Shown: positions 33,190 through 37,033 of the stretch, piece by piece
Numbering within the stretch: the first letter of the stretch is position 1
How the letters are laid out: the number at the start of each line of letters is the position of its first letter
Source of the DNA: Escherichia coli
GTDB lineage: Bacteria > Pseudomonadota > Gammaproteobacteria > Enterobacterales > Enterobacteriaceae
Assembly: GCF_011045215.1 (NCBI RefSeq)
Contig: NZ_CP049201.1
DNA: 64,000 nucleotides
Strand: one strand, 5' to 3'
Translations under genes and position numbers: made by a program
Notes under the pieces: generated by a model
Database searches by the model: none
Seen by the model: the letters and a program-made list of their open reading frames with translations, nothing else
Told to the model about the DNA's origin: nothing

Positions 33190-33470
33190 ATCACTACCGT
33201 GCTGCAAATGGTGGTGAACAGCATCAATTGTGGAATGAATGTTGCCGAAGCGACCAATGCGCCTCGTTTCCACCATCAGTGGTTGCCGGACGAGCTGCGT
33301 GTTGAAAAGGGTTTAGTCCGGATACGCTCAAGCTGCTGGAAGCAAAAGGTCAGAAAGTGGCGCTGAATGAGGCGATGGGCAGCACGCAAAGCATTATGGT
33401 TGGGTCGGATGGTGAGTTGTACGGCGCATCCGACTCGCGCTTGGTGGATGATTTAACGGCGGGGTATTAA
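33190..33470 (+). pseudogene. ggt: 3' fragment of a gamma-glutamyltranspeptidase (ggt) gene with an internal 1-bp frameshift
   Basis: Encodes ...VNSINCGMNVAEATNAPRFHHQWLPDELRVEK then, in the next frame, GFSPDTLKLLEAKGQKVALNEAMGSTQSIMVGSDGELYGASDSRLVDDLTAGY*; no N-terminal part. Confidence 0.7.
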
Positions 33471-33509
33471 TTGACATCCCCCGGCGCAGTGTGCCGGGGG
33501 ATAATGGTT

Positions 33510-34361
33510 TTATGCGGTCAATAATCGTCCGGGATTATCGATACAGAGTTTTTTGAGGATCGTTTTATCGACGCCGCGCTCCGCCAGATAGGCCAGAAAA
33601 ACATCTGGAACAAATCCCCAGCCATTACCGCCATTTTTAGCCCACATTTGTTTAAGGAAGACATCGTGGCTGAGAACAAGCTGATCGGCGTATCCCAACT
33701 CAATGAGATGAGCGACGGCATCGGCAGTCTCCTGCACCCCTGGCGCTATTCCCTCTTTCGGGAAGGTAATGTCTAGGCCAATCATGTCGAATTCCAGCCA
33801 GACACCCTTATCAAGCATTTTCCGCTGATACGCCACGTCTTTTCCTGACGGATCCGAGTGTGCGAGAGAGACTTTATTTGGCGAGACGCCCATTTCACCT
33901 AACACAATGTCGAGTACTTCATCACCGCGACGAAGCCAGCCCGGCATGTGAATATTCATCGCCACATGAGGATTGTTAATCTGTGCCAGCGAGGCAGCCC
34001 GCAAGCTGTTATGCTCGGCTTCGGTAAATGTCGGTGAGACACCTATTTCACCGATCATTCCGGCACGAATATCCGTATCGCCAATCCCTTGATTCAATTC
34101 TTTATCAATCGTTGCCGCCAGTTCATCAACCGTTTTATGAATTCTCTGGCTTTCAAATTTTTCCAGGTAGGGACCGGAGGAAGCAACAATATTCAGACCT
34201 GTTTTTAATGCGACTTCTCGTAATGCCTGCGCATCTCGTCCGATAGACTCAGACCCTGTGGCATCAACAATGGTGCGACCACCGAGCGAGATAAAGTTAT
34301 TAATTTCGAAGATCACATCTTCAATAGGTTTGCGGTCCATATTATCAGCGCAGCAATAAGG
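33510..34361 (-). pseudogene. phosphotriesterase-family (Php-like TIM-barrel hydrolase) gene, 5' end removed at the IS3 boundary
   Basis: ORF 33510..34340 (276 aa) resembles Php/YhfV from about residue 35; the N-terminal HxH metal-binding strand is missing; IS3 left end at 34362. Confidence 0.65.
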
Positions 34362-34426
34362 TGATCTTACCCAGCAATAGTGGACACGCGGCTAAGTGAG
34401 TAAACTCTCAGTCAGAGGTGACTCAC

Positions 34427-34726
34427 ATGACAAAAACAGTATCAACCAGTAAAAAACCCCGTAAACAGCATTCGCCTGAATTTCGCAGTGAAGCCCTGAA
34501 GCTTGCTGAACGCATCGGTGTTACTGCCGCAGCCCGTGAACTCAGCCTGTATGAATCACAGCTCTACAACTGGCGCAGTAAACAGCAAAATCAGCAGACG
34601 TCTTCTGAACGTGAACTGGAGATGTCTACCGAGATTGCACGTCTCAAACGCCAGCTGGCAGAACGGGATGAAGAGCTGGCTATCCTCCAAAAGGCCGCGA
34701 CATACTTCGCGAAGCGCCTGAAATGA
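34427..34726 (+). CDS. insE: IS3 OrfA transposase subunit InsE (99 aa)
   Basis: ATG at 34427 gives [52 protein letters not shown]... Confidence 0.9.
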
Positions 34727-35545
34727 AGTATGTCTTTATTGAAAAACATCAGGCTGAGTTCAGCATCAAAGCAATGTGCCGCGTGCTCCGGGTGGCCCGC
34801 AGCGGCTGGTATACGTGGTGTCAGCGGCGGACAAGGATAAGCACGCGTCAGCAGTTCCGCCAACACTGCGACAGCGTTGTCCTCGCGGCTTTTACCCGGT
34901 CAAAACAGCGTTACGGTGCCCCACGCCTGACGGATGAACTGCGTGCTCAGGGTTACCCCTTTAACGTAAAAACCGTGGCGGCAAGCCTGCGCCGTCAGGG
35001 ACTGAGGGCAAAGGCCTCCCGGAAGTTCAGCCCGGTCAGCTACCGCGCACACGGCCTGCCTGTGTCAGAAAATCTGTTGGAGCAGGATTTTTACGCCAGT
35101 GGCCCGAACCAGAAGTGGGCAGGAGACATCACGTACTTACGTACAGATGAAGGCTGGCTGTATCTGGCAGTGGTCATTGACCTGTGGTCACGTGCCGTTA
35201 TTGGCTGGTCAATGTCGCCACGCATGACGGCGCAACTGGCCTGCGATGCCCTGCAGATGGCGCTGTGGCGGCGTAAGAGGCCCCGGAACGTTATCGTTCA
35301 CACGGACCGTGGAGGCCAGTACTGTTCAGCAGATTATCAGGCGCAACTGAAGCGGCATAATCTGCGTGGAAAGCTTCTTTCATTCGCTGAAAGTGGAATG
35401 TATCCATGGAGAACACTTTATCAGCCGGGAAATAATGCGGGCAACGGTGTTTAATTATATCGAATGTGATTACAATCGGTGGCGGCGGCACAGTTGGTGT
35501 GGCGGCCTCAGTCCGGAACAATTTGAAAACAAGAACCTCGCTTAG
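34723..35545 (+). pseudogene. insF: IS3 OrfB transposase InsF, inactivated by an internal deletion
   Basis: ORF 34723..35454 leaves frame after ...QLKRHNLRG; conserved C-terminus [57 protein letters not shown] continues in another frame to 35545. Confidence 0.8.
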
Positions 35546-37033
35546 GCCTGTGTCCATATTACGTGGGTAGGATCACCGCACTCTTGACATAAGAGTGCGG
35601 TCCGTGGAAAACGGAGTTGAAAAAATGGTGTCTGAAAGAAGGTACCATCATTGCGATGACAAACACTTTGGCGTGGATAATGTAATTAATTGCTGAAATT
35701 GACCGTATATGCGGTAAGACTCATATCAGTATCAGGTCCGGTTAATTGCTGATACTGACATAAACTTTTTACAAAAGGATGAATGCAGAAGGTTACTCTA
35801 ATGGCCAGAGTGATGACAATGATGGTCAGACGTTGACCTGCAGAAACTGCATTTTAATTGGTCTATAAAGTCTGCAAGAGGAATCAGGGTCAGATCAGTG
35901 AGTCTTATCGCGGCCCGAAGCTATGACTGAAAGAAGGCTGGATACAGAATTGCAACAATTTGGCAATGTCAGAACACAGAAGCTTTGCAAGCAGGTGAAA
36001 GGTTATGTCTAGCAAAAGGAGTATATCAGAATACATCTACTGATGTACAAAACACAACAATAGCTTCATGATATATAAATACGTGATGACGAGTGGTACT
36101 CCGCATGGTTATTTAACTTCTCAGCACCACTAATGATCCTGAGCAACTTCGTATTTGGGCCATTGCCATGGAGTAGAAAGCTGTGTCTGAGAATGCAGAA
36201 TTTGAGAAAAGAATTCGCTTTCTTGGAGAGCTTCTGAAAATGGCACGCTAACAACGTTTTGTTAAAAAATGTGAATCACTTGCCGAGGCTGCATTTTCTA
36301 TTCGAGGAGAATGTTGACGTAGATATTACAGAAATCTCAGCGCATCAGGATAAACTGCTACCTTAGGTCAACCACCAAAAGAAAATACAATACGTCCAGT
36401 TTGTATGCCTTTAATAACACATCTTTTAAATGTTGAAGAATTATCCCGCCTGCTGAAGAACGTTGCTCTGAGTGTGATAAACCTTTTTATTCTTGATGAT
36501 GTCAGCGAGAAGATGGAATATATCCCCGACTGGGTCGTGGTTACCCGGTTAAACATCTGGTGGCGCTAATAAATCTGGCAAGTCACATTCTGTTGAATGC
36601 TGTGACAGTGCCTTACCGAGAGAGCGAAATTGTGGTGTTCTAGTGCATAGTCGCCACCATTCCGGATAATTCTATTGCGTTGTTTTACAAGTTCTTTTAC
36701 AGCGCAGATCTGTCGCTGACGTTGAATCAATAGCCTGGATTTCAGAACACAATGCCCGTTTGCTGGTTGGTCCGGCAGTAGCATTAATTCATTATCTGAA
36801 TGAAATGTGTCAATCCACAGAAACCGCTGTCAATGACGCATTTTGTCGGACGTTAACACGAGGAAGTCTGGCTATTCCACAATGCCATCTTCTTTCGTAA
36901 TGGATTGAGAATGCTGGATTTTTAATTATATTACGCGCAGTATTGATCGTGTAAATGTTTTGCGGTCAGCAATGGTGGGGGATCCATTGTTCTGTTCAAT
37001 GAATACCATCATACAATTGAATCAGGAGTCGGT

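Follow-up and report, generated by a model that had tools for sequence, protein, structure and literature searches.

An internally deleted IS3 copy and a probable IS-associated 5.4-kb deletion in a chromosomal island of Escherichia coli

Introduction

How did a shortened IS3 copy come to abut a phosphotriesterase-family gene without its start, and why does a 3' fragment of the gamma-glutamyltransferase gene ggt lie nearby? The question was raised by an earlier note on a 64,000-nucleotide stretch of DNA (the window), which is E. coli chromosome and includes a variable island left of cobUST-ldtA. At the IS3 locus this island bears an unremarkable scar left by genome decay, already annotated as pseudogenes. 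Three adjacent RefSeq pseudogene calls (ggt, a phosphotriesterase-related gene and IS3) are explained here by one history, consisting of a captured gene cluster, a 5.4-kb IS3-associated deletion, a later 44-bp loss and vertical inheritance. The account as a whole is considered very likely to be correct. The scar serves as a lineage marker; its carriers are without a cluster of the rikA-STM3550 type, and their native ggt is unaffected. The finding has little weight beyond bookkeeping and implies no new biology.

Results and Discussion

The IS3 copy

IS3 is a 1258-bp element of the IS3 family with the genes orfA and orfB, a -1 programmed frameshift, a DD(35)E transposase and a 3-bp target duplication. 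The copy in the window was aligned to a full-length 1258-bp IS3.

34362-35575, plus strand: IS3 copy of 1214 bp, with 44 bp deleted internally
35362-35371, plus strand: deletion joint from the IS3 alignment, where one copy of the 10-bp direct repeat CTGCGTGGAA survives

Nucleotide identity was about 99.8% over all 1214 retained bases, with two mismatches and no gap except the 44-bp deletion. The missing 44 bp are bounded in IS3 by two 10-bp direct repeats, CTGCGTGGAA, which defines the deleted segment and bears out the estimate in the earlier note that the element was about 44 bp short of the canonical 1258 bp. Both terminal inverted repeats (TGATC...GATCA) are intact, as are orfA (34427-34726) and, at 34689-34693, the A AAA G motif of the frameshift. 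The start of orfB is at 34723. At the joint, orfB goes out of frame at OrfB residue 221 and reaches a stop at 35454. The product is 243 aa compared to 288 aa for intact OrfB, and the Pfam matches rve_2 and rve_3 are gone, so the loss of frame read from the sequence earlier was real. The segment ...CYDNACVESFF... is absent from the window OrfB, leaving the DD(35)E catalytic core incomplete; from established knowledge of the IS3 family, the lost glutamate is presumably the third catalytic residue of this motif. Since the frame shifts before the catalytic glutamate, the copy encodes no active transposase. It is thus predicted to be immobile on its own, in line with the earlier reading. PGAP labels it 'IS3 family transposase, frameshifted'. 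Compared to IS3, the window copy is without 44 bp of orfB, the reading frame and the region of the catalytic glutamate, and also without a target duplication.

The gene fragments to the left of IS3

31398-33132, plus strand: ISL3-family pseudo-element, frameshifted and interrupted by an internal stop; terminal inverted repeats matching at 22 of 24 positions
33172-33470, plus strand: ggt', the 3'-terminal ~99 codons of a gamma-glutamyltransferase gene (Pfam PF01019)
33476-33502, no strand: GC-rich hairpin between the convergent ends of ggt' and the phosphotriesterase-family gene, 12 pairs followed by a T-rich tail
33510-34361, minus strand: php', a phosphotriesterase-family pseudogene (Pfam PF02126), homologue of Salmonella STM3550

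The match of php' to PF02126 (E 4e-43) covered profile positions 28-297 of 298. Comparison with an intact 344-aa allele showed that the first 61 codons (183 bp) are missing, not about 35 as first estimated, and that only the 3' 283 codons are retained. Residues 1-61 include LPHEHL, the HxH metal-binding motif, and the domain in php' is therefore incomplete. An intact php was found in strain F138, beside the same ISL3'-ggt' as in the window.

The ggt' fragment matched only profile positions 423-509 of 512 in PF01019, far from a full-length ORF of ~580 aa. An in-frame TGA is present at 33184-33186, and near 33315 one base pair is deleted; the fragment aligned to Salmonella bongori ggt with one gap. 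A frameshifted ggt 3' fragment just beyond the ISL3 element was thus correctly recognized from the start. Both ggt' and php' are truncated; they lie, however, on the left of IS3 and not on either side of it, as had been supposed. The native ggt, to which ggt' is 92% identical, is present in 5423/5426 genomes, and carriers of the island copy match ggt at two places. The ISL3 pseudo-element forms the left boundary of the ggt fragment, and in strain EC931, which has an identical locus, PGAP annotates an ISL3 pseudogene. The hairpin at 33476-33502 looks like a terminator in a terminator-like scan of the sequence.

A 5,403-bp replacement at the IS3 ends

The flanks of IS3 read ...AATAAGG on the left and CCGCAC... 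on the right. No 3-bp target duplication was found around the window IS3 (AGG compared to CCG), exactly as the earlier note stated. E. coli NCTC9966, which is free of IS3 at this place, has exactly 5,403 bp where the window has IS3 (locus L017, positions 9001-14403). The flanks of the window are present at ~98% identity in both NCTC9966 and F138 with 5,403 bp between them, and they are collinear in NCTC9966. The limits of the 5,403-bp stretch coincide exactly with the two IS3 ends, and the missing segment was absent from the rest of the window. Because IS3 replaces exactly 5,403 bp found in IS3-free genomes, an IS-associated deletion is supported, and the initial preference for such a deletion over a simple insertion holds. 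The proposal that the left end of IS3 replaces the start of the php gene held as to the loss of the php 5' end; the total replaced is 5,403 bp. This length is an estimate relative to the comparator NCTC9966, and the ancestor of the window lineage may differ between rikA and yoeA.

On the php side the lost stretch contains the 5' end of the phosphotriesterase-family gene, followed by genes for a DMT transporter, a glutamine amidotransferase and the rikA/PfkB kinase. The remainder is IS debris and a fragment of yoeA (TonB-dependent receptor) with its upstream region. In NCTC9966 and F138, rikA has an internal stop, and the operon was partly pseudogenised before it was lost.

Proposed history of the island

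A cluster of rikA (STM3547), STM3548, STM3549 and STM3550 is located next to ggt in Salmonella (PMC13432705). In S. bongori, the PfkB-GATase-DMT-PTE genes converge on a full-length ggt, beyond which lie a DUF2756 gene and ugp genes. The four gene families and their order are shared by the E. coli cluster, in which the phosphotriesterase gene is likewise convergent with ggt. The intact E. coli phosphotriesterase-family protein has 86-88% identity to those of Salmonella. Unlike in Salmonella, the E. coli cluster lies in an island beside cobU, away from the native ggt, and has only a ggt 3' stub. The four genes would be the counterpart of STM3547-STM3550. As the Salmonella cluster lies tail-to-tail with the native ggt, ggt' is probably a piece of the former neighbour that was carried along with the cluster, rather than a decayed working copy.

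The ancestral order would have been ISL3', ggt' (rightward), php (leftward), DMT transporter, glutamine amidotransferase and rikA/PfkB kinase, continuing with IS66'/transposase debris, the yoeA fragment, a hairpin, IS4', the cobalamin-gene remnant and cobU. An IS3-associated event would then have removed 5,403 bp, with end points in php, at codon 61/62, and within the left arm of the hairpin that lies upstream of yoeA. The missing 3-bp duplication would follow from this, because the single IS3 at the joint is flanked by DNA from two different target sites. The deletion could have arisen by recombination between two directly oriented IS3 copies, or by intramolecular transposition of one IS3 end into nearby DNA. 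The possible intermediates were searched for with synthetic junction queries in 5,426 complete E. coli genomes, which served as the population sample throughout. Neither the IS3 right end joined to AGG and the php 5' part nor the left side of the hairpin joined to CCG and the IS3 left end was found (0/5,426 in both cases). Since no intermediate survives in these genomes, both routes still stand, and the deletion itself is not contradicted.

In a later step, slipped-strand or short-homology recombination between the CTGCGTGGAA repeats in orfB may have cut out 44 bp and kept both ends of the element. In strain ZYS9073 the two junctions of the window enclose a full-length 1258-bp IS3, and the 5.4-kb and 44-bp deletions are therefore separable events. 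Their order is only probable, because the full-length IS3 of ZYS9073 may be either the ancestral state or a product of gene conversion. The scar appears to have been passed on vertically and to be still eroding, as in NCTC86, where, besides the 44-bp deletion, another 190 bp are gone across a 9-bp microhomology.

A similar case reportedly arose in the long-term E. coli lines of Lenski, where IS150-associated deletions of the rbs operon are said to have been described by Cooper et al. in 2001 in J Bacteriol. In both cases an IS3-family element bounds a multi-kb deletion of a sugar-kinase/catabolic operon, and a single IS copy with mismatched flanking duplications is left. Unlike the IS150/rbs deletions, the event in the window is ancient and has become fixed in a lineage found in nature (470-491 genomes), and the lost operon was already partly pseudogenised.

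Distribution and alternative explanations

Junction-specific queries found the left junction in 491/5,426 genomes and the right junction in 470/5,426, so the scar is present in ~9% of complete E. coli genomes. The undeleted cluster is kept in 1,920/5,426. A higher count of 2,481 carriers was rejected, because the query consisted to 95% of ggt'/php and also picked up genomes whose php is intact. The 44-bp joint was found at 565 places in 530 genomes, 21 of these places on plasmids, and also on 17 PLSDB plasmids.

A tentative extension of the proposed history, less likely than not, is that the 10-bp repeat pair in orfB is a recurrent hot spot of self-inactivation or a gene-conversion tract spreading between copies. 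The 1214-bp form would then be a common and repeatedly generated defective isoform of IS3, on chromosomes as well as on ETEC and IncF/IncHI plasmids, and not a one-off lesion. It is rather improbable that the 1214-bp element is instead a non-autonomous derivative, spreading by means of transposase supplied in trans from full-length IS3, in which case 'immobile' would apply only narrowly. The abundance of the 44-bp joint, on plasmids too, would fit such spreading, as would the two intact inverted repeats of the window copy and the occurrence elsewhere of complete 1214-bp elements flanked by 3-bp duplications (TTG in FAM21845, ATA in p573-4). Two other genomes, however, have a full-length 1258-bp IS3 at the same shiA/glycosyltransferase position with the same TTG duplication. 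Because the full-length form shares site and TTG, the short form arose in situ at the shiA site by slippage or gene conversion, making mobilisation in trans unnecessary. Furthermore, the 1214-bp copies at other loci have C at element position 1170 but the window copy has A, and IS3-family transposases act mostly in cis.

The deletion in the island could also be explained by a simple IS3 insertion in php and an unrelated spontaneous deletion that started exactly at the IS3 right terminus. Deletions independent of IS elements do happen here, as the 190 bp lost in NCTC86 demonstrate. The boundary nevertheless matches the intact right inverted repeat to the base in 470 genomes, as an independent deletion rarely would, and the right junction of a simple insertion was found in 0/5,426 genomes; this explanation is considered very improbable. 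An assembly or sequencing artefact is practically out of the question, with the same junctions in 470-491 independently assembled complete genomes and the 44-bp joint in 530.

The hairpin and the right flank

35576-35608, no strand: ancestral hairpin remnant, consisting of the palindrome and the orphaned outer right arm TCCGTGGA (35601-35608)
35609-37033, plus strand: conserved non-coding flank up to cobU, in 3,445/5,426 genomes at >=80% coverage
~36542-36730: IS4-family transposase gene remnant (PGAP pseudogene 'IS4 family transposase')
~36739-36900: cobalamin-biosynthesis gene remnant (PGAP pseudogene 'cobalamin biosynthesis protein')

A perfect palindrome (35576-35600, 10-bp stem and 5-nt loop) abuts the right end of IS3, where it had been noticed earlier. 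Its 10-bp stem is, however, only the core of a larger hairpin. In ATCC 25922, O157 and K-12, alignment revealed an intact stem of 18-19 bp, and it is the left arm of this stem that the IS3 junction interrupts in the window. With truncation, the folding energy of the hairpin goes from -37.4 to -23.5 kcal/mol. Perfect hairpins of 10-11 bp are not unusual, about a dozen being present in the window. In a weaker variant of the hot-spot idea, the strong hairpin upstream of yoeA may have attracted an IS3 end. A target resembling the right end of IS3, as in IS911-style insertion directed by inverted repeats, was rejected as too weak, with only ~8/15 bases matching by eye.

The hairpin was also rejected as a known RNA or terminator. 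A T-run (U-tract) was found on neither strand, and Rfam gave no match except a chance miRNA match (E 0.43). It is present in one copy per genome. Among GTDB species representatives, a pattern with 24 specified bases gave 0 matches and a looser 18-base pattern gave 7 unrelated matches, which by our estimate is close to chance expectation; the idea that the hairpin is repeated or widespread was therefore dismissed.

To the right of IS3, non-coding DNA is followed by the IS4-family remnant, the cobalamin-gene remnant and cobU. The cobalamin-gene remnant, annotated only as 'cobalamin biosynthesis protein', is taken by us to be cbiP. A remnant of a Salmonella-type pdu and cob region upstream of cobU in E. 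coli was reportedly described by Lawrence and Roth in 1996 in Genetics. The cobalamin-gene remnant and a pduV-family remnant by tmaR/yeeX bracket the island. Unlike this background scar, the IS3 deletion is later and lineage-specific, and it lies inside the island that fills the gap.

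Replacement of part of the island by IS3

The window is of E. coli chromosomal origin. The IS3 locus sits in a variable island to the left of cobU, with cobU, cobS, cobT, ldtA and a tRNA-Asn gene downstream of the region of interest. The ends of the element were placed by alignment with strain ZYS9073, which carries IS3 at the same two junctions.

33172-33470: ggt', the last ~99 codons of ggt, with an in-frame TGA at 33184-33186 and a 1-bp deletion near 33315
33510-34361, minus strand: php', a 5'-truncated phosphotriesterase-family pseudogene (Pfam PTE, profile positions 28-297)
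34362-35575: IS3
35576-35600: hairpin remnant

Strain NCTC9966 has the same island without IS3, in the order ISL3', ggt', intact php, DMT transporter, glutamine amidotransferase and PfkB kinase (with an internal stop), followed by IS66' with transposase debris, a yoeA 5' fragment, a hairpin, IS4', a cobalamin-gene remnant and cobU. Window positions 30773-34361 and 35575-42438 were collinear with NCTC9966 at ~98% identity, and the 5,403 bp between the collinear blocks (NCTC9966 locus L017, 9001-14403) were replaced by IS3. This segment was not found in the rest of the 64-kb window. The left flank of IS3 ends in AATAAGG and the right flank starts with CCGCAC, so no 3-bp duplication surrounds the element, as the earlier note had observed. 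Its proposal of an IS-mediated deletion rather than a simple insertion gains direct comparative support from NCTC9966. Internal stops were present in rikA/PfkB of genomes that keep the cluster (L017 10980-12194 in NCTC9966; 19312-20526 in L008, the F138 locus), and the F138 amidotransferase gene also has one (L008 18540-19298), which shows that decay of the cluster preceded the IS3 deletion. IS3 sits at an old IS-associated 5.4-kb deletion within a decaying island.

The intact php allele of F138 encodes 344 aa, and php' begins at its residue 62 (PYCCADNMDRK...). Hence 61 codons are absent, the LPHEHL metal-binding motif among them, and not about 35 as first estimated. The ggt' fragment is frameshifted and lies just past ISL3, as described before, ~40 bp from the right inverted repeat of this degenerate element. 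Both php' and ggt' are to the left of IS3, which corrects the earlier placement of IS3 between two amputated genes. Otherwise, the observation was largely accurate and its interpretation is supported. A run of G residues (ccagggggggggacagg, 32595-32612) was noted within the ISL3 transposase pseudogene, where its reading frame breaks.

The hairpin at the right junction

The palindrome reported to abut the right end of IS3 is perfect, with a 10-bp stem and a 5-nt loop; the stem is 11 bp when the terminal A of IS3 is counted. In ATCC 25922, O157:H7 and K-12, which lack IS3 here, it is the central part of a longer hairpin, TCCACGGACCGCACTCTT-GACAT-AAGAGTGCGGTCCGTGGA, with a 19-bp stem (L017 14396-14436 in NCTC9966), ~213 bp upstream of the TonB-dependent receptor gene yoeA. 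Homology of these genomes to the window starts exactly at the IS3 end, within the left arm of the hairpin, and the outer right arm TCCGTGGA, now orphaned, persists at 35601-35608. Folding gave -37.4 kcal/mol (z = -9.3) for the ancestral hairpin and -23.5 kcal/mol for the remnant. The hairpin is single-copy, has no U-tract and no Rfam match, and was not found in representative genomes of other species. About a dozen perfect 10-bp hairpins occur in the window, so the remnant by itself is unremarkable.

Route of the deletion

Recombination could have joined two IS3 copies lying in direct orientation in php and in the hairpin, or one end of a single IS3 could have attacked intramolecularly; both routes yield an identical product. 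Constructed junctions expected of the intermediate of each route gave 0 matches among complete E. coli genomes, so the route is inferred. We lean towards recombination between two copies, on the model of IS150 and the rbs operon.

The 44-bp deletion in IS3

The element is 1214 bp long compared to 1258 bp in ZYS9073, and one 44-bp gap is the sole length difference, in agreement with the shortening first noted. In full-length IS3 two copies of CTGCGTGGAA bound the 44-bp segment; a single copy is left in the window at 35362-35371. The gap lies between repeats and has 11 equivalent placements in the alignment, the pattern that slippage or short-homology recombination leaves. The deletion spares orfA (34427-34726) and the A AAA G frameshift motif. 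OrfB reaches 243 aa, compared to 288 aa at full length, with the final 22 residues out of frame, confirming the loss of frame at CTGCGTGG. The ...GSMSAKGCCYDNACVESFF... segment is absent, and the Pfam rve_2 and rve_3 matches are lost. In the DD(35)E scheme of the family, the glutamate lies in this segment, 36 residues beyond the aspartate of HTDRGGQY; with its loss the copy would be immobile on its own, as had been suggested. The element is canonical IS3, inactivated by a deletion that is common.

A 44-nt probe spanning the deletion joint, unable to seed on full-length IS3, matched 565 places in 530 genomes (21 plasmid-borne) and 17 PLSDB plasmids. ETEC and IncF/IncHI plasmids are among the carriers (compared loci L013, L014, L015, L016 and L019). 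Among complete 1214-bp copies elsewhere, two have a 3-bp duplication (TTG in FAM21845, ATA in p573-4), whereas two others lack one. At the FAM21845 site (shiA/glycosyltransferase), 873.10 has a full-length 1258-bp IS3 at the same position with the same TTG duplication, and a matching 2058-bp span points to a full-length 1258-bp copy in MB06233. Short and full-length IS3 at one site with the same TTG argue that the short form arises in place. The data can be accounted for without mobilisation of the short form in trans, which is left as an unlikely alternative. It appears that the deletion either recurs through slippage or is acquired by gene conversion from a second short copy.

Distribution and variants of the scar

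Among 5,426 complete E. coli genomes, the left junction (php'/IS3) was found in 491 and the right junction (IS3/hairpin remnant) in 470. At a coverage of at least 80%, the undeleted cluster was found in 1,920 and the right-hand flank, around the hairpin, was conserved in 3,445. A query made mostly of ggt'/php sequence matched 2,481 genomes, a number that over-counts scar carriers. ZYS9073 has the same scar junctions with full-length IS3, and IS100 inserted in php'. TUM2820, with one mismatch in the right junction and a transposase that carries no pseudogene flag, is probably of the same type. NCTC86 shares the 44-bp deletion. A further deletion there, of 190 bp (window 35438-35627) across a 9-bp microhomology (L006 14330-14338), took away the right end of IS3, the hairpin remnant and 52 bp of flank. 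Erosion of the scar continues, as NCTC86 illustrates.

Origin of the cluster and ggt'

The cluster corresponds to STM3547 (rikA) to STM3550 of S. Typhimurium (PMC13432705). Outside E. coli, the nearest php proteins are Salmonella phosphotriesterases (86-88% identity). S. bongori has a yhhX-like gene, DeoR-PfkB, GATase1-like, DMT_YdcZ and PTE, then a full-length 580-aa ggt convergent with PTE, a DUF2756 gene and ugpQCEAB; this is the native ggt locus. The tail-to-tail arrangement of php and ggt is kept in the E. coli island, which identifies ggt' as a carried-along flank of the donor locus. Native ggt, 92% identical to ggt', is present in 5423/5426 E. coli genomes, and genomes with ggt' have two ggt-matching places each. 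Genomes with intact php show the same ISL3'-ggt', so truncation of ggt is older than the IS3 event.

Elsewhere in the Enterobacteriaceae, a phosphotriesterase gene of 77% identity, in some cases accompanied by the DMT and amidotransferase genes and in others not (L012 7208-13416; L011 7776-13415), adjoins relaxase, NikA-like and PsiA-type plasmid genes and an IS3-family transposase. These neighbours show that the cluster also travels on mobile DNA.

Existing annotation and other remnants

The EC931 locus is essentially identical to the window, and its RefSeq/PGAP annotation reads, in order:

ISL3 pseudogene
gamma-glutamyltransferase pseudogene, frameshifted, without N-terminus
"phosphotriesterase-related protein" pseudogene, without N-terminus
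"IS3 family transposase, frameshifted"
IS4-family transposase fragment
"cobalamin biosynthesis protein" fragment, then cobU

All components of the locus already have a RefSeq annotation, and they were shaped by textbook processes. The cobalamin-biosynthesis gene remnant and IS4-family fragment lie at 36542-36900, upstream of cobU, and a pduV-family remnant adjoins tmaR on the far side of the island (L017 2510-2692 in NCTC9966). Together they resemble a scar left by loss of the pdu and cob gene region. An insertion relative to NCTC9966, at 29608-30772, is an IS110-family pseudo-element with an internal stop; it separates the two zinc-ribbon protein genes.
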